Assembly: GCA_045134215.1 (NCBI GenBank)
Contig: JBGUVH010000085.1
Coordinates: 1-32,716 of the forward strand
Length of the DNA stretch: 32,716 nt
Direction of reading: 5' to 3'
DNA from: Acutalibacteraceae bacterium
Lineage (GTDB): Bacteria; Bacillota; Clostridia; Oscillospirales; Acutalibacteraceae
Shown here: positions 20,476 to 26,826 of the stretch, one piece after another
Layout: each line of letters starts with the position of its first letter
How positions within the stretch are numbered: position 1 is the stretch's first letter
Program-made: the position numbers and the translations under genes
Notes under the pieces: generated by a model
What the model was told of the DNA's origin: nothing
Seen by the model: only the letters and a program-made list of their open reading frames with translations
Databases searched by the model: none

Positions 20476-21294
20476 ATGGCTGACAACCGTCCTATAGGAG
20501 TTTTTGATTCAGGACTTGGCGGACTCACCGTTGTAAAGGAGCTTGTAAAACAGCTTGGTAACGAAGATATAATTTATTTCGGTGACACCGACCGCGTTCC
20601 CTACGGCACAAAAAGTAACGAAACAATTAAAAAATTTGCCCGACAGGATGAAGCCTTTCTGCTGTCAAAGGATGTAAAGCTTATAGTTGCTGCCTGTGGT
20701 ACTGTAAGTTCTGTAGCAGGTGATACTGCAAAGGAGCTTCCCGTTCCCTTTGTTGAAGTAGTTTCTCACGCCTGTGCTGCGGCAGTAAGTGCCACAAAAA
20801 ATGGAAAAATCGGAGTTATCGGCACCTCTGCCACAATTAACAGCGGCGAACACCGAAAGCAAATTCTTAGCCTTTCTCCCGACTGCGAGGTGCTGTGCCA
20901 AAGCTGTACATTGTTTGTCCCTCTTGTTGAATCAGGCTGGATAGATGAAAACGATATTGTTGTTTACGAAACCGTCAAAAAGTATCTTACTCCTATGATT
21001 GAAGCAGGGGTTGATACACTGATTCTCGGTTGCACCCACTATCCCATACTTTCTTCCGCCATAAAAAAGGTTATGGGTGAAAATGTAACCCTGATTAATG
21101 CAGGTACTTCAACCGCCGAGGCTGTAAAACATCTTCTGACAGAAAAGGATATGCTTAGCAGCAACGACAAAAAAGGAAATATTTCTTATTTTGTCAGTGA
21201 TATAACTCCTTCATTTTCTTCTACCGCTTCCCTTCTCCTTGGTGAAAAGGTATACGAAAATGAGGTAATACAGGTAGATATAAACAGCCTATGA
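20476..21294 (+). CDS. murI: Glutamate racemase
   Basis: VFDSGLGGLTV, the catalytic Cys contexts (VAACGT, GCTHYP), and a GGGGGA SD. Confidence 0.95.
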   Translation: MADNRPIGVFDSGLGGLTVVKELVKQLGNEDIIYFGDTDRVPYGTKSNETIKKFARQDEAFLLSKDVKLIVAACGTVSSVAGDTAKELPVPFVEVVSHACAAAVSATKNGKIGVIGTSATINSGEHRKQILSLSPDCEVLCQSCTLFVPLVESGWIDENDIVVYETVKKYLTPMIEAGVDTLILGCTHYPILSSAIKKVMGENVTLINAGTSTAEAVKHLLTEKDMLSSNDKKGNISYFVSDITPSFSSTASLLLGEKVYENEVIQVDINSL

Positions 21295-21704
21295 CAAATG
21301 CAATAATAACCGTAAGGGGCTATCAGTATATAAACGGCGAAGAAGATGTTATCGAGCTTAAGACACAGGGAAAATTCGGTCTTAAAGACGGCAAATTTTA
21401 TATAAAATACAGTGAGCAGGATGAGTTTGGTGTAGAAACCCAAACACTTATAAAAGTCAGCGACAGTCAGACACTGCTGCAGAGAAGCGGCGGAACCGAA
21501 AGTCGAATGGTTATTGAAGTCGGCAAACGAAACTGCTGTCTTTACAGCGCTCAGGGTGCAGGTTTAATGCTTGAAATATACGGTGAGCATATAGAAAACG
21601 GTCTTACCTGTTTCGGCGGAAATCTTACCCTTGAATATTCAATTCTCACAAACAGCACACTACTGAGTCAGAACAAAACAGAAATTACCGTAAAAGAGGT
21701 TTAA
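21291..21704 (+). CDS. DUF1934 (YwiB-like) beta-barrel protein
   Basis: 137 aa with an ATGA overlap with murI, immediately upstream of argS as in many Firmicutes. The assignment rests on size, position and general sequence character. Confidence 0.7.
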   Translation: MTNAIITVRGYQYINGEEDVIELKTQGKFGLKDGKFYIKYSEQDEFGVETQTLIKVSDSQTLLQRSGGTESRMVIEVGKRNCCLYSAQGAGLMLEIYGEHIENGLTCFGGNLTLEYSILTNSTLLSQNKTEITVKEV

Positions 21705-21708
21705 AAAT

Positions 21709-23394
21709 ATGTCACTTTTAGTGAATAAAGCAAAAAATCAAATTAAAGAATTAATAAGCTGCGCAGCCAAAAAGGCTATGGAAGAAAACATTTTATGCGA
21801 GGCAGAGCTTAATGACTTCAACATTGAGGTTCCCTCGGATACAAAGCACGGCGACTATGCTGTCAATGCTGCTCTTGTATGGGCACGTGCTTTCAAAAGC
21901 GCTCCAAGAAAAATTGCCGAAATTCTTATGGAAAAGGCAGACTTTAAGGATACCTATATTGACCGCTTTGAAATCGCAGGTCCGGGATTTATTAACTTCT
22001 TTCTTAGTGATAAATATTATTCCGACATTCTTACCGATATTGCCGAAAAACAGGATAAATACGGTGAGAGTGGTTTTGGCGAAAACAAAAAGGTTCTTGT
22101 GGAATTTGTTTCTGCCAACCCTACAGGCCCTATGCATATTGGAAATGCCCGAGGCGGTGCGCTGGGTGACTGCCTTGCGGCTGTTATGGAAAAAGCGGGT
22201 TACTATGTTGAAAGAGAATTTTATATTAACGATGCAGGTAATCAGATAAATAAATTTGGTCTTTCCCTGTCACTGCGTTATCAGCAGCTTTTTGACAACA
22301 GTATTGAAATGCCCGAAGACTCCTATCACGGCGCAGATATTATAGCTCACGCTAAAGCCTTTGCAGATATTAACGGAGATAAATTTATAAATGTCAGCGA
22401 GGAAGAAAGAAGAAAGGCTCTTGTCGAATTCGCCCTGCCCAAAAATATTCAGGGTCTTCACGATGACCTTTTAAAATACAGAATCCAGTATAACACCTGG
22501 TTTAAGGAAAGCTCACTTCATGCAAACGGTGAAACCAAGAGAATAATTGAACTGCTCAAAGAAAGTGGTCACACCTATATTGAAGAGGATGCCCTCTGGT
22601 TTAAGGGCGAGGATTTTGGAAGTGATAACTTTGTTTTAGTTCGCAGCAACGGTGTTCCTACCTATATTGTTCCTGACATAGCTTATCACTATAATAAGCT
22701 GGTTACCCGCGGCTTTGACAAGGCTATTGATATTCTCGGCGCAGACCACCACGGCTATGTTCCCCGTCTTAAAGGTGCGCTTACAGCATTAGGTATTGAC
22801 AGCAGCAAATTAGACGTTGTACTTATGCAGATGGTTCGTCTTGTTAAGGACGGTGAAATAATAAAGGCAAGTAAGAGAAGCGGTAAGGCTATTACCCTTG
22901 TTACCCTTCTTGAAGAGGTTCCCATTGATGCAGCCCGTTTCTTCTTTAACCTTCGTGAGCCTAACTCTCACTTTGATTTTGATTTGGACCTTGCTATTGA
23001 AGAATCAAATAAAAACCCTGTTTATTATGTTCAGTATGCCTATGCCAGAATTTGCAGCATTATAAGAAATCTGGCGGCTGACGGCATTACCCAGAGAGCC
23101 TGTACCGCTGAAGAGCTTATGAAGCTTACCACCCCCGAAGAGAGAGAGCTTACTGTTCATCTTGCCGCTTATACAGATGAAATTATAAGCTCCGCCAAAG
23201 CCTATGACCCCGCAAAGATTACCCACTATGTAGAAGAACTTGCTACTAAATTCCATAAGTTCTATAACTCCTGCAGAGTAAAAGGTGATGACGAAGGTCT
23301 TATGCAAGCCCGTCTTACCCTTTGCACCGATACAAAGACGGTTATTAAGAATGTACTTGATTTACTTAAAATCGATGCTCCTGAGATGATGTAA
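21709..23394 (+). CDS. argS: Arginine--tRNA ligase
   Basis: 561 aa with the class I HIGH-type motif (PTGPMHIGNARG), the canonical ArgS C-terminal anticodon-binding region, and the terminal M. Confidence 0.97.
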   Translation: MSLLVNKAKNQIKELISCAAKKAMEENILCEAELNDFNIEVPSDTKHGDYAVNAALVWARAFKSAPRKIAEILMEKADFKDTYIDRFEIAGPGFINFFLSDKYYSDILTDIAEKQDKYGESGFGENKKVLVEFVSANPTGPMHIGNARGGALGDCLAAVMEKAGYYVEREFYINDAGNQINKFGLSLSLRYQQLFDNSIEMPEDSYHGADIIAHAKAFADINGDKFINVSEEERRKALVEFALPKNIQGLHDDLLKYRIQYNTWFKESSLHANGETKRIIELLKESGHTYIEEDALWFKGEDFGSDNFVLVRSNGVPTYIVPDIAYHYNKLVTRGFDKAIDILGADHHGYVPRLKGALTALGIDSSKLDVVLMQMVRLVKDGEIIKASKRSGKAITLVTLLEEVPIDAARFFFNLREPNSHFDFDLDLAIEESNKNPVYYVQYAYARICSIIRNLAADGITQRACTAEELMKLTTPEERELTVHLAAYTDEIISSAKAYDPAKITHYVEELATKFHKFYNSCRVKGDDEGLMQARLTLCTDTKTVIKNVLDLLKIDAPEMM

Positions 23395-23455
23395 ACGGAC
23401 ATTGTCGGTTTAGCTTAGTTCGCCAAGGCGAGATAAATGAAACATTCAACAACCA

Positions 23456-23494
23456 AGCCTGATGTTTATTTAACTAAACATCAGGCTCGTTTTC
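23456..23494. terminator. argS intrinsic terminator, usable from both directions
   Basis: 13-bp perfect stem agcctgatgttta / taaacatcaggct with a 6-nt loop, followed by cgTTTTc on the plus strand. On the minus strand the tail is uugguuguug. Confidence 0.8.
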
Positions 23495-23500
23495 ATTAAG

Positions 23501-23521
23501 CAAAAAAGCACTCGCAAGATT
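23501..23521. repeat. Left copy of a perfect 21-bp direct repeat, caaaaaagcactcgcaagatt
   Basis: Identical to 24136-24156, with the flanking bases differing on both sides. This copy is an orphan half of the tsf terminator; the stop codon of the small lipoprotein gene overlaps it. Confidence 0.95.
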
Positions 23522-23936
23522 AATCTTTCACTTGTTTTTTTCTAACTAATTTAACCTTAACAGTTACTTTCCAAATAGCTATATTTCCATCATAACTTCC
23601 ATTATCCTCTACTACCTTTACTATAAAACTTGTACTTGCGCCATCTATAAGAGAAATGTCTATCCAACCATATCCCGTATCTGAATATTTATCATTTTCC
23701 GTAAATCGCACGTATATTGTAGCCTCTGCCCCAAGCGGTGCAGTAATTATATCACCGCTTTTAATATTTCTACCATTACAGGAGTAGTATTTAGACCATT
23801 CGTTACCCACTTTATTATTTTCATCACAAATAGAGTCGATTGTTATCTCATATTCCCCATGTGTGTAATTTTCCTCACAGGCGCACAAAGAAATCATAAT
23901 AACAATGGCTAACACTGTGCAAATTATCTTTCTCAT
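23520..23936 (-). CDS. Small hypothetical lipoprotein (138 aa)
   Basis: The ATG at 23936 gives MRKIICTVLAIVIMISLCAC, a signal peptide with lipobox-like LCAC. The mature part looks beta-rich. The track start at 23966 is a TTG buried in a terminator stem, so I rejected it. Confidence 0.7.
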   Translation of the reverse strand: MRKIICTVLAIVIMISLCACEENYTHGEYEITIDSICDENNKVGNEWSKYYSCNGRNIKSGDIITAPLGAEATIYVRFTENDKYSDTGYGWIDISLIDGASTSFIVKVVEDNGSYDGNIAIWKVTVKVKLVRKKQVKD

Positions 23937-23949
23937 AAAATACCCCAAT

Positions 23950-23975
23950 AAAAAAGCGTACTCCAAGGAGTACGC
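23950..23975 (-). terminator. Intrinsic terminator/attenuator inside the leader, 14 nt upstream of the lipoprotein ATG
   Basis: The minus strand reads GCGUACUCC-UU-GGAGUACGC followed by UUUUUU. The effective stem is ~8 bp with a 4-nt loop. Confidence 0.65.
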
Positions 23976-23977
23976 CG

Positions 23978-24100
23978 AAAAAGTGTTTGTCCTCGGTTAA
24001 TTGCGACATCAACCAAATTACCCAACGAGGAATAGAGGAAAACACCTTTTACCAAGATATCTTCCCTCGTTGGATACAAATTATTTAATTGATGTCGCAA
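23978..24100 (-). promoter_or_regulatory. Unclassified structured RNA leader (candidate riboswitch/attenuator or small RNA)
   Basis: 12-bp perfect closing helix (24001-24012 / 24089-24100) and an inner ~10-11-bp helix (24021-24033 / 24061-24074). The apical loop segment 24035-24050 can form 16 bp (one bulge, one G.U) with linker 23978-23994. Confidence 0.5.
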
Positions 24101-24104
24101 ACAT

Positions 24105-24133
24105 ATTTTACCACAAACAAACTGAAAAGTAAA
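24105..24133 (-). promoter_or_regulatory. Candidate extended -10 promoter driving the structured leader
   Basis: The minus strand reads TTTACT-17 nt-TAAAAT with TGg immediately upstream of the -10. The predicted start falls at the base of the 12-bp helix. Confidence 0.4.
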
Positions 24134-24135
24134 GA

Positions 24136-24156
24136 CAAAAAAGCACTCGCAAGATT
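24136..24156. repeat. Right copy of the 21-bp direct repeat, forming part of the intact tsf terminator
   Basis: Identical to 23501-23521. Confidence 0.95.
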
Positions 24157-24169
24157 TTCTTGCGAGTGC
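24137..24169 (-). terminator. tsf intrinsic terminator
   Basis: 11-bp stem gcactcgcaag / cttgcgagtgc with a 5-nt loop, followed by UUUUUU on the minus strand. Confidence 0.85.
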
Positions 24170-24187
24170 AGTCTATTTAAGGTTTAA

Positions 24188-25099
24188 TTATTTTGCCATT
24201 GCAGCAACTTCAGCAGCGAAGTCGTCAACACGCTTCTCAATACCTTCGCCCTTTTCAAAACGAACATAAGAAGCAATCTTAACGGGAGTACCGATAGCCT
24301 TAGCAACGCTTTCTACATACTTACCAACGGTAAGGTCACCGTCGATAACGTACTGCTGCTCAACAAGGCAGTTTTCCTTATAGTACTTGCCCATTTTACC
24401 CTCAACGATTTTGCCGAGAACTGCCTCAGGCTTATTAGCCATTTTGGGATCTTCCTTCATCTGAGCAATCATAATTCCCTTTTCTTTTTCAATTACTTCA
24501 GCAGGAACACTTGCTTCATCAAGGAAAGCAGGGTTCATAGCAGCAATCTGCATTGCGATGTTCTTACCGCAAGCAACAAGCTCTGCATTGTCTGCCGCCG
24601 CATCGGTTTCAAAGTTTACGAGAACACCGATTTTACCGCCGCCGTGAATGTAAGATACAACCTTACCCTCATAACGAACAAAACGACGAACCTTAATATT
24701 CTCTCTAATTGCAAGGAAGAGCTCCTGTACCATTTCTTCAACGGTCTGACCGTCCTTAGAGGTAGCAAGAAGAGCCTCAAGGTCAGCAGGATTTTCGTCA
24801 GCAACAATTTCTGCAACCTTAGCGGCAAGAGCCTTAAAGCCGTCACCGTTAGCAACGAAGTCTGTTTCACTGTTAAGCTCAACAAGAGCGCCAACGCCGT
24901 TTTTAACAACAGCAGCAATAGTACCCTCAGCAGCAATTCTTGAAGACTTCTTAGCCTGAGAAGCAAGTCCCTTTTCTCTTAAATAGTCAACAGCTGCATC
25001 CATATTTCCGTCACACTCAACGAGAGCCTTTTTGCAGTCCATCATACCGCAACCGGTTTTCTCACGAAGAGTCTGTACGTCTTTAGCAGTAAAAGCCAT
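24188..25099 (-). CDS. tsf: Translation elongation factor Ts
   Basis: N-terminal UBA-like LREKTGCGMMDCKKAL. The length and conserved blocks are typical of EF-Ts. Confidence 0.97.
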   Translation of the reverse strand: MAFTAKDVQTLREKTGCGMMDCKKALVECDGNMDAAVDYLREKGLASQAKKSSRIAAEGTIAAVVKNGVGALVELNSETDFVANGDGFKALAAKVAEIVADENPADLEALLATSKDGQTVEEMVQELFLAIRENIKVRRFVRYEGKVVSYIHGGGKIGVLVNFETDAAADNAELVACGKNIAMQIAAMNPAFLDEASVPAEVIEKEKGIMIAQMKEDPKMANKPEAVLGKIVEGKMGKYYKENCLVEQQYVIDGDLTVGKYVESVAKAIGTPVKIASYVRFEKGEGIEKRVDDFAAEVAAMAK

Positions 25100-25137
25100 A
25101 ATACTTTTCCTCTTTTCTTAAAATTTCAAAATCAGAA

Positions 25138-25911
25138 TTATTCTGCAGAATCCTCAGTTGTTTCCTCAACAGGAGCTTCTTCTGTAGCATCTACAGCTTC
25201 AGCAGCCTCGGCAACAGGAGCATCCTGCTCACCCTGACGGCCTTCGATAATAGCAGCGCCGATAGTTTCAGCAATAAGCTTTACAGCGCGGATAGCATCA
25301 TCGTTACCAGGGATAACTGCATCAATTTCATCAGGATCACAGTTGGTATCAACAATAGCGATGATCGGGATACCAAGCTTCTTAGCTTCAGCAACAGCGA
25401 TTCTTTCTTTTCTGGGGTCAACAATGAAAAGAGCGCCGGGGATCTTCTTCATATCCTTGATACCGCCGAGATATTTCTCAAGCTTTTCAATTTCGAGCTG
25501 AAGACCAACAGTTTCTTTCTTGGGGAGAAGATCGAAGGTTCCGTCTTCTTCCATTTCTCTGAGCTGCTTTAAGCGGGCAATTCTCTTCTGAATAGTGCTG
25601 AAGTTAGTGAGCATACCGCCGAGCCAACGAGCGTTAACATAGGGCATACCGCAATTTTCAGCCTCTTCCTTAACAGAGTCCTGAGCCTGCTTCTTGGTAC
25701 CTACAAAAAGAATGTCCTTGCCTTCAGCAGAAATTTCGCGAGCGAAAAGATAAGCTTCGTTAAGCTTCTTTACGGTCTTCTGAAGGTCGATAATGTAAAT
25801 ACCGTTTCTTTCTGTGTAAATGTACTCAGCCATTTTTGGATTCCAGCGGCGAGTCTGATGTCCAAAATGAACACCGGCCTCAAGCAGCTGTTTCATAGAT
25901 ACTACTGCCAT
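25138..25911 (-). CDS. rpsB: 30S ribosomal protein S2 with an acidic C-terminal tail
   Basis: [27 protein letters not shown] is a canonical S2 N-terminus. C-terminal tail ...[23 protein letters not shown]. Confidence 0.97.
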
Positions 25912-26033
25912 TTGTTTTTCCTCCTAAGGTTAAACCTCCATCCCGCCCATACAGGAAACTCCGGCAAAGAGACCTTCTGCAATACAAAGCGGAATGTGTG
26001 TATTATATTACTGCATAGTTTCGCAGCCTTACG

Positions 26034-26062
26034 ATTATAACATATAAAAATCAATTATGCAA
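26034..26062 (-). promoter_or_regulatory. Candidate sigma-A promoter for rpsB-tsf
   Basis: The minus strand reads TTGCAT-17 nt-TATAAT, which leaves a ~115-nt 5' leader before rpsB. Confidence 0.45.
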
Positions 26063-26071
26063 TACTTTTTT

Positions 26072-26106
26072 TTAAAAAAGTGAAATCGGCGAAAAAATCA
26101 CCGATT
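26072..26106 (-). terminator. Weak intrinsic terminator after the histidine phosphatase gene
   Basis: 9-bp stem including one G.U (aaucgguga / ucgccgauu), followed by ucacUUUUUU on the minus strand. Confidence 0.4.
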
Positions 26107-26112
26107 CCTCTT

Positions 26113-26826
26113 TTAAAAATAAATTTCGTTATTGTATTTTGTGGGTAAGCCCTCTTTATAAAGGTGTGAATCGTTGGCAAGCGTAAGAATTTTAGGTATA
26201 GCTATTCCGTTTTCGTCTTTAAACTCAATAACCGTAATTCCTGTATGTGATGTATCAAAATGCATAGCAAAAACAGGATACGGAATATCTAAAAGACTGC
26301 TTAAGAAGGCAAATCCAAAACCCTGATGAGCAAAAAGAGCAACTCTTTCTTCATTATCTCTAAGTACCTTATATGTTCCTGTTCCCTTTATATGCTCATA
26401 GCCAAAGCTTCTGAAGAGTTTATCACTTTCCTCTGAAACGCGCTGTAATCCGTTTTCGAAATGATAATCCTTAAAATCGGAATGAGTATACCATTTATCC
26501 CTAAGACTTAAAACCTCAGGGGAGCACATAAGCCTTCGATATTCATTCACCTGAAATATCCATCTTTTACCTGTTTCTATATCAACAGTAAAATCTCTCC
26601 ACGCGTGACCTTCATTACAGAAATCAAGCTGAGTTATATCCTTTTTAAGAATTTCGGCTGTAGGAGTTGCTGTCTGTATAGCACGATTAGAGGTAGAAGA
26701 GAAAATCCTGTCAATTCCGTATAACGCCAGTCGTTTTGCAACAGCCTCTGCCTGTCTTTCGCCCAAGGGAGTAAGAGAATCAGGATTATAAATAGGGTCA
26801 CCGTGACGCACATAGAAAAATAGCAT
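26113..26826 (-). CDS. Histidine phosphatase (phosphoglycerate mutase-like) family protein
   Basis: RHGDP motif (FYVRHGDPIY) and a second His context (LFAHQGFG). The ATG at 26826 overlaps the upstream stop as TGATG and has AAGGTG 8 nt upstream. Confidence 0.85.
   Translation of the reverse strand: MLFFYVRHGDPIYNPDSLTPLGERQAEAVAKRLALYGIDRIFSSTSNRAIQTATPTAEILKKDITQLDFCNEGHAWRDFTVDIETGKRWIFQVNEYRRLMCSPEVLSLRDKWYTHSDFKDYHFENGLQRVSEESDKLFRSFGYEHIKGTGTYKVLRDNEERVALFAHQGFGFAFLSSLLDIPYPVFAMHFDTSHTGITVIEFKDENGIAIPKILTLANDSHLYKEGLPTKYNNEIYF

Follow-up and report, generated by a model that had tools for sequence, protein, structure and literature searches.

A 21-bp direct repeat around a lipoprotein cassette between argS and tsf as a probable recombination scar between terminator hairpins

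In the 32,716-nucleotide stretch of an Acutalibacteraceae genome analysed here (the window; contig JBGUVH010000085.1 of assembly GCA_045134215.1), the convergent housekeeping genes argS and tsf are separated by a gene for a putative small lipoprotein (the lipoprotein gene) with its own leader RNA and predicted promoter, and this unit, hereafter the cassette, is bracketed by a perfect 21-bp direct repeat. A first-pass annotation had suggested that the segment could be an inserted, non-autonomous gene cassette. Comparison with relatives speaks against a recent insertion of a mobile cassette, since throughout the genus the unit is an ancestral neighbour of the argS 3' end and relatives carry it without the repeat. 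We propose that the segment is probably an old accessory unit of the argS 3' flank, that the repeat is the scar of a recombination between two terminator hairpins, and that a deletion took place later. The feature is a combination of known kinds, namely a moron-like accessory unit, a short-repeat scar and a deletion polymorphism, and does not represent a new class of mobile cassette.

Anatomy of the repeat

The two copies of the 21-mer CAAAAAAGCACTCGCAAGATT (positions in Table 1) lie 635 bp apart, show no mismatch between them and are bordered by different bases, in agreement with the first-pass description. The window contains no further match when as many as three mismatches are allowed (none is expected, from 100 shuffles), and at up to two mismatches the window copies are the only ones in the whole metagenome-assembled genome (MAG; G000, 1.16 Mb in 146 contigs, 79% complete, 5% contamination). 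The 21-mer is thus not a terminator repeat common throughout the genome, the finding that would have spoken for an ordinary local duplication. The arrangement is not an assembly artefact either, since its junctions are recovered in independent samples: the left one is unchanged in Logan contigs from two other samples (X2, 23375-23610; X3, 23427-23592) and the right one is spanned by a third Logan contig (X1).

The right copy belongs to the intact tsf terminator, whose layout is A6-GCACTCGCAAGA-TTT-TCTTGCGAGTGC and which is conserved in G014, G008, G018, G006, G017 and G013 (relatives are designated here by G or L and a number). Its membership of this terminator had been recognised correctly, but its designation as the 5' half holds only in plus-strand coordinates; in the sense of the tsf RNA the copy consists of the last two bases of the loop, the 3' half of the stem and the U-tract. 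The left copy is, as had been suggested, an orphan half-terminator placed on the stop codon of the lipoprotein gene: its region folds at -6 kcal/mol, no better than shuffled sequence (z = 0.1), and its last two bases form part of the TAA stop of the lipoprotein open reading frame (ORF; complement of 23520-23522).

The left site can be understood from the 3' end of the lipoprotein gene in relatives, where an intact bidirectional hairpin is present in G005, G006 and L085 (for example AAAAAAACAAGCAGATG-ttaat-CATCTGCTTGTTTTTTT), a different hairpin in G017 and none that is evident in G009. The former terminator of the window gene would have read A6-7-CAAGTGAAAGA-TTAA-TCTTTCACTTG-T7, of which only the TCTTTCACTTG-T7 half is kept, and the reconstructed ancestral hairpin CAAGTGAAAGATTAATCTTTCACTTG has a predicted fold of -19.7 kcal/mol. 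The truly new sequence at the left site amounts to the central 8 nt GCACTCGC only.

Two strain-level observations concern the same region. In run X1 one strain differs in the tsf terminator at 24154 (A>T, inside the right copy) and at 24170-24173, and the repeat may be imperfect in some strains; the left copy is not covered in that run. A second record of run X2, a Logan contig of 455 nt, is perfect over 23622-23876, and its other 200 nt (...GACTAACTAAAACCAT at the joint) are unrelated to the window; the contig could come from a variant strain whose lipoprotein gene has another 3' part, or else be a chimera of the assembly graph.

The locus across relatives and the age of the duplication

The first-pass annotation had predicted an empty site formed by removal of one repeat copy together with the interval. 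A search of 40 relatives found it in this exact form in the congener G014 (...aacatcaggcttgttttcattata-CAAAAGCACTCGCAAGATT-ttcttgcgagtgc...), whose spacer is composed of the argS hairpin, cattata, CAAAAGCACTCGCAAGATT and ttcttgcgagtgc, precisely what remains of the window once one repeat copy and the interval are taken out. The cassette itself is at home at this locus. The lipoprotein gene and the leader lie beside the argS stop, in the same orientation, in G005, G006, G009, G002, G017 and L085, and in G013 the leader lies beside tsf at a contig end. Judged from these sequences, the cassette adjoins argS in at least seven other species or assemblies of the genus, usually with its own terminator intact, and none of the orthologous cassettes has the repeat. 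In a tree built from tsf and rpsB the cassette-bearing species surround the clade of G000, G014 and G008. ArgS and Tsf are 91-97% identical in amino acid sequence among the cassette-bearing species, the lipoprotein only 51-62%.

The argS-tsf locus is a turnover hotspot, with three empty forms, one decayed copy and two replacements, and the cassette has been lost from it repeatedly and independently. Besides G014, an empty form is found in G008, whose collapsed junction TTTTCAcATTAcgtaaaCAAAAAGCAC resembles that of G014 and which has also lost the spacer and the argS hairpin, and in G018, where the lipoprotein gene was deleted with different end points and a relic hairpin ctgacAAGATTAATCTTgtcag / ctgacAAGATTAATCTTgtcagttttttt remains, with the same AAGATTAATCTT loop as in the window. 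G001 retains a decayed lipoprotein pseudogene from which the leader has been deleted, and in G007 and G011 other DNA replaces the cassette between argS and tsf. The argS hairpin is common to the window, G014 and L053 and is absent from G005, G006, G018 and L085. Among minor features of the locus, the argS-tsf spacer of G007 (L046, 316-1511) holds another gene of about 330 aa on the argS strand, and in G004 an IS3-like transposase gene adjoins tsf. Short G-rich repeats of the type TAGGGAATAGGGATTAGGG stand in inverted orientation on both sides of the cassette in the argS-tsf spacers of G009 and G002 (L006/L007) and occur likewise in G011 (L047); a family of small repeat elements populates this spacer in some species, beside other dispersed repeats.

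The age of the duplication follows from L053, a 730-bp ENA scaffold found by protein search, which encodes a lipoprotein 85% identical in amino acid sequence to that of the window and whose cassette is 87% identical at the nucleotide level. Over about 170 nt its left flank (argS 3' end, spacer and argS hairpin) shows 100% identity to G014, in a region where the window and G014 are only about 81% identical. Where the window has its left repeat, L053 has GAAAAATCACTCGCAAATTC, an orphan half-terminator in degenerate form, and next to it the half that survives of a lipoprotein-gene terminator. The decayed orphan half on a flank identical to that of G014 places the duplication before the split of the G000 and G014 lineages. 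Full and empty alleles thus stand on identical flanks, and, most simply read, these sequences indicate that the G014 lineage holds both and that the G014 reference is the deletion allele. The synonymous divergence (dS) of the lipoprotein gene between G000 and L053 is 0.61, with a ratio of nonsynonymous to synonymous divergence (dN/dS) of 0.16, against a dS of 0.34 for tsf between G000 and G014, which fits the co-divergence of a functional gene.

Proposed origin of the repeat and competing explanations

We propose that the recombining partners were the tsf terminator and the bidirectional terminator of the lipoprotein gene, 635 bp apart and in the same orientation, which would already have had in common the A-tract and, at the top of stem and loop, AAGATT. 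A half of tsf type, with GCACTCGC as the minimal novel patch, would have been swapped in for the half of lipoprotein type, with the joint inside AAGATT. This exchange would at once have destroyed the terminator of the lipoprotein gene and created the 21-bp repeat, prior to the separation of the lineages of G000 and G014. Afterwards the repeat, or at any rate its A-tract, may have served as substrate for a precise RecA-independent deletion, by slippage or by short-homology recombination, leading to the empty allele of G014 and probably also to that of G008.

Three molecular routes to the duplication can be considered. An intrachromosomal event, to which we give slightly less than even odds, would consist either of a double template switch or short-patch conversion between the hairpins, or of an unequal exchange at AAGATT giving a tandem duplication that later collapsed at the A-tracts. 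The third route, possible but somewhat less likely, is recombination between an empty allele and one that bears the cassette, joined at one end through the AAGATT microhomology. It corresponds to homology-facilitated illegitimate recombination, reportedly described in naturally transformable bacteria by de Vries and Wackernagel and by Prudhomme and colleagues. The likeness lies in long homology on one side only (tsf) and in a microhomology of 6 bp in the hairpin loop as the joint, and such an event would duplicate the recipient sequence between the joint and the start of homology; unlike it, the present case has no identified donor and no mosaic signal in tsf, and the event would have to be old. 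The term is used in PMC6382021. The block formed by the argS hairpin, CATTA and the tsf half is the same as the left portion of the empty allele, a mild argument for the third route. The missing mosaic tract in tsf (sliding-window identity of G000 against G014, G008, G006 and G018 detected no imported tract beside the cassette) and the age of the event do not discriminate among the three.

Several observations weigh against the proposed history. The repeat is still identical at 21 of 21 positions, although it would be older than a split of about 8-15% nucleotide divergence; we estimate that such identity would rather seldom persist without conversion, and it may reflect conversion by the functional right copy. 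The right copy of L053 is not seen on the 730-bp scaffold, and its conspecificity with G014 rests on the roughly 170 identical bases. L053 and G014 differ at 3 of the 8 bases directly left of the repeat, so G014 does not descend from an allele identical to that of L053. The species tree is built on 1.7 kb only and leaves G000, G014 and G008 as a trichotomy. No excision or deletion joint was found in six G000-like and four G014-like runs, where Logan contigs only, at 3-15x, were searched, a depth uninformative on rare events. Finally, deletion at A-tract microhomology from an ancestor without the repeat would give the same G014 junction, and the empty site is therefore no proof that the repeat was used.

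The alternative that survives best, which we nevertheless regard as unlikely, is re-acquisition. The common ancestor of G000, G014 and G008 would already have been empty, in G014-like form, and the cassette would have been regained from a relative by homology-facilitated illegitimate recombination, with the anchor in tsf and its terminator, the other end at the 6-bp AAGATT in the tsf loop and 21 bp duplicated, while G014 and G008 would retain the original empty allele. The block left of the junction suits this history, being the left part of the G014 empty allele (shortened in G008), and so do the two empty species out of the three of the clade. Furthermore, the variable stem of the window leader is of G005 type (CCAACGAGG) and not of the type of the sister clade G013/G017, the argS 3' spacer is also common to the window and G005, and perfect identity of the repeats would befit a younger event. 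However, the decayed orphan half of L053 on a G014-identical flank shows that the event is neither recent nor specific to G000, and the divergence between the G000 and L053 cassettes roughly tracks that of the flanks. The lack of a mosaic tract in tsf beside the cassette also counts against re-acquisition, as does the lipoprotein gene tree, which does not conflict with the species groups, and a microhomology joint would be the rarer outcome given the long argS homology.

Movement of the cassette between genomes, which re-acquisition demands, does appear to have occurred elsewhere. The copies of G004 (L008, 1373-2235) and G011 (L009, 1140-2319) lie between ilvE and a VirE-like (primase/helicase-type) gene and are 99% identical, against 94% for the housekeeping genes of both species, and a scan of Joint Genome Institute (JGI) metagenomes recovered L084 only, of the same type. 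The G004, G011 and L084 copies are flanked by dispersed repeats, in direct copies of 46-91 nt. This suggests a recent horizontal transfer of the cassette as cargo in G004 and G011, possibly with repeat-mediated relocation.

The reading in line with the first-pass annotation, a non-autonomous cassette mobilised by a recombinase or transposase acting in trans, with the 21-mer as att-type core or as an unusually long target-site duplication, is largely refuted and we consider it very improbable. In its favour, the layout could formally be read as attL-cassette-attR and has an exact empty site as its counterpart; the cassette occupies three different genomic contexts (argS/tsf, argS/atpC and ilvE/VirE-like) and its G+C content is below that of its neighbours. 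Yet other species carry it at the same locus without the repeat at its ends, and the relocated copies of G004, G011 and L084 are flanked by unrelated dispersed repeats and not by the 21-bp core. In L085 (1190-1960) the cassette lies between atpC and argS instead of between tsf and argS, and its right end abuts atpC with neither the GCACTCGC hairpin nor the repeat. A hairpin, GCACTCGCAA, travelling with the cassette is ruled out on the same ground; the tsf-type hairpin, missing where the cassette abuts atpC, belongs to tsf, and the breakpoint of the L085 rearrangement coincides with the promoter end of the cassette. Moreover, reciprocal recombination of hairpin by hairpin should leave a hybrid at each of the two ends; here the left hairpin alone is a hybrid and the right one is purely tsf. 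The extra copies and similar repeat-bounded cassettes that the first-pass annotation had envisaged did not appear: the cassette is single copy in the MAG, and repeats of a terminator half were found around none of 19 other leader-gene modules.

Recombinases were sought as well. The MAG has no match to PF00589 (tyrosine recombinase), not even of XerC/D type, whereas all 14 control genomes do, an absence that is probably due to the incompleteness of the MAG (79% complete); no recombinase-like ORF was found among the ORFs of 21000-26500, the rest of the window not having been scanned. An att-type element would account for the core-like repeat and the one-core empty site, but no cognate recombinase was found and the same core is missing at the cassette ends in G005, G006, G009, G002, L085, G004 and G011. 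Integron cassettes with their attC sites are likewise small, bounded by imperfect palindromes and joined within a hairpin; the present cassette, in contrast, has its own promoter and leader, one hybrid hairpin boundary, no integrase or attI that could be found, and no array or other cassettes at the site, and it was rejected as such. With insertion sequences (IS) and miniature inverted-repeat transposable elements (MITEs) it shares a short segment with non-coding flanks between direct repeats. A duplication of 21 bp is longer than those known from IS families, and the cassette differs from these elements by its single copy, its gene under selection, its orthologues without the repeat and the lack of convincing terminal inverted repeats inside the duplication or of multiple copies with duplications of their own. 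No inverted repeats abut 23522 and 24135; all that could be noticed there by eye was TCTTT(C)ACTT, a gapped match some 10 nt long. An A/T-rich inverted repeat of 17 nt (23544-23560 / 24177-24193) is offset from the repeat ends, inside the lipoprotein gene and across the tsf stop, and was taken as chance.

A chimeric join, as the fragmentation and contamination of the MAG might suggest, or a chance or convergent similarity of two terminators that independently share the A-tract and AAGATT, is hardly credible given the junctions recovered in independent samples and assemblies, the shuffles in which no match is expected, the central 8 nt GCACTCGC that terminator convergence does not explain, and the homologous junction in L053.

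Among known systems, an old accessory unit of this kind comes closest to the morons of phages, which in the concept of Hendrix and colleagues are said to be autonomous promoter-gene-terminator units inserted among conserved genes. The cassette resembles them in having its own promoter and formerly its own terminator between two conserved genes, a lower G+C content, and a single gene for a putative small surface lipoprotein that is present or absent among close relatives; its terminator is found in relatives, and its transcription signals are predictions. Its near-identical copy beside a VirE-like mobile-element gene in G004 and G011 is a further likeness. Unlike a moron, it is chromosomal and lies between housekeeping genes, it has been inherited mostly vertically for the life of the genus, and it bears an elaborate leader RNA. 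The deletion in turn resembles deletion or slippage between short direct repeats, in that the 21-bp repeat brackets 614 bp, a natural allele corresponds to the exact loss, and hairpin-forming sequences stand at both ends; it differs in that A-tract microhomology alone could yield the G014 product. Allele pairs are provided by G014 with the window and by G014 with L053, the latter with 100% identity of the flank along about 170 nt (L053 ends before its right junction is seen).

The locus is a clean natural example of the turnover of a small accessory gene between convergent housekeeping genes, in which functionally similar terminator hairpins would supply the microhomology for a duplication and the duplication would make the gene precisely deletable. 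It also carries a caution for genome scanning: a direct repeat together with an exact empty site is in itself no proof of insertion. As a more speculative extension, which we think improbable, terminator hairpins of convergent genes could be recurrent, recombinase-free joints for the loss and regain of modules, with the leader as a new class of attenuator or riboswitch. If so, microhomologies of A-tract and loop would provide the joints within the loops, the modules would consist of a leader and a small surface-protein gene, and the leader, with two exclusive covarying helices followed by a terminator and present in about 30% of sampled Oscillospirales genera, would govern genes for small secreted, surface and mobile-element proteins.

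Leader RNA family and content of the cassette

The interior of the segment is self-contained, as first described, with promoter, structured leader, attenuator and ORF all found as sequence predictions. It is also more A+T-rich, as had been counted by hand, with a G+C content of 34.5% in the insert against 39.9% in the genome, 41.5% in argS and 44.8% in tsf. The identities of argS and tsf were confirmed by NCBIfam equivalog models (Table 1).

Table 1. Features of the argS-tsf region, in window coordinates
Feature	Position	Strand	Description
argS (arginine--tRNA ligase)	21709..23394	+	left neighbour, convergent with cassette and tsf; TIGR00456, 439 bits
argS intrinsic terminator	23456..23496	+	13-bp hairpin 23456-23487 and CGTTTTCATT tail; -20 kcal/mol, z = -6
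Left copy of 21-bp repeat	23501..23521	+	orphan A-tract and one half of tsf terminator, in place of the original half-terminator of the lipoprotein gene
Small lipoprotein gene	23520..23939	-	139 aa; predicted signal peptide and putative lipobox L-C-A-C; mature part predicted beta-sandwich
Surviving half of former bidirectional terminator of lipoprotein gene	23522..23541	+	AATCTTTCACTTGTTTTTTT; junction with left repeat in old loop, within AAGATT/AATCTT
Structured leader RNA	23951..24103	-	about 150 nt; P1 and P2 helices, apex hairpin with UUGGUAAAA, linker, terminator/attenuator (predicted)
Cassette promoter	24105..24133	-	predicted; -35 TTTACT, 17 nt, TG-extended -10 TAAAAT
Right copy of 21-bp repeat	24136..24156	+	part of functional tsf terminator
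tsf intrinsic terminator	24137..24169	-	12-bp stem 24143-24169, -21 kcal/mol; U-tract 24142 down to 24137
tsf (elongation factor Ts)	24188..25099	-	right neighbour; TIGR00116, 286 bits

The most novel item here is the leader, which by alignment and comparative folding is an order-wide RNA family, supported by covariation and without a match in Rfam. A covariance model built from 15 copies of this genus matched 4 times in the MAG (besides the window, at G000:C65:4402-4551(+), C117:181-355(-) and C75:15342-15514(-)). Within the family it had matches in 27 of 150 genera, and across the order in 35 of 120 sampled genera, with up to 8 copies in some genomes. The long hairpin of the leader has z = -8, and an intrinsic terminator or attenuator with a U-tract is predicted at its 3' end (23955-23976, minus strand). 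Over 35 copies, 91.9% of the cells are paired, compared with 70% in shuffles and 32-54% in slid controls, and 32 of the 37 pairs show compensatory changes; the alignment had been fitted to the model, a bias towards the structure. The linker that precedes the terminator and the 3' strand of the apex are complementary and covary with each other, the mean energy being -15.2 kcal/mol for self duplexes and -8.8 kcal/mol for cross duplexes, which implies two mutually exclusive folds.

Searches against Rfam 15 gave, on the window, only sub-threshold hits driven by the terminator, and none on the motif in 20 family-level copies; no relevant description of the motif was found in the literature. The genes downstream of leaders encode small lipoproteins, BspA-like repeat proteins, SLOG/YspA-like proteins, ABC ATPases and small Cys-rich proteins. 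The practical value of the present analysis lies mostly in this by-product, a widespread leader RNA family unnamed in the libraries and situated, in gut Oscillospirales, upstream of many genes for small surface, secreted and mobile-element proteins. Leader units are sometimes arranged in tandem (G016:C8, G006:C17, G008:C20 and G013:C47).

The putative lipoprotein contains MRKIICTVLAIVIMISLCAC, and the AlphaFold2 model has an N-terminal helix. The residue at -2 of its putative lipobox L-C-A-C, a Cys, lies outside the classical [LVI][ASTVI][GAS]C set, which is satisfied by the homologues (LSAC, FSAC or LAAC). These homologues are 51-85% identical and all belong to the present genus, known from Acutalibacteraceae MAGs of animal guts, to which the family is confined. 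With a dN/dS of 0.16-0.19 the gene is real, fast-evolving and under purifying selection. No match was obtained in Pfam, PHROG or NCBIfam, and neither the 139-aa nor the 142-aa form of the protein was on record in an exact look-up. The AlphaFold2 model is a beta-sandwich with a predicted local distance difference test (pLDDT) score of 87; a structure search against the PDB gave nothing significant, with weak matches to C2-like beta-sandwiches only (E > 0.004, template modelling score <= 0.41).

In most leader copies a conserved TGnTAnAAT box precedes P1 by about 7 nt. In the window the extended -10 box of the leader's promoter, TGGTAAAATATGTTT (24099-24113), recurs in the apex loop of the leader, TGGTAAAAGGTGTTT (24040-24054). 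From this sequence, the conserved apex loop might also serve, as DNA, as a sigma-dependent pause element resembling a -10 box.

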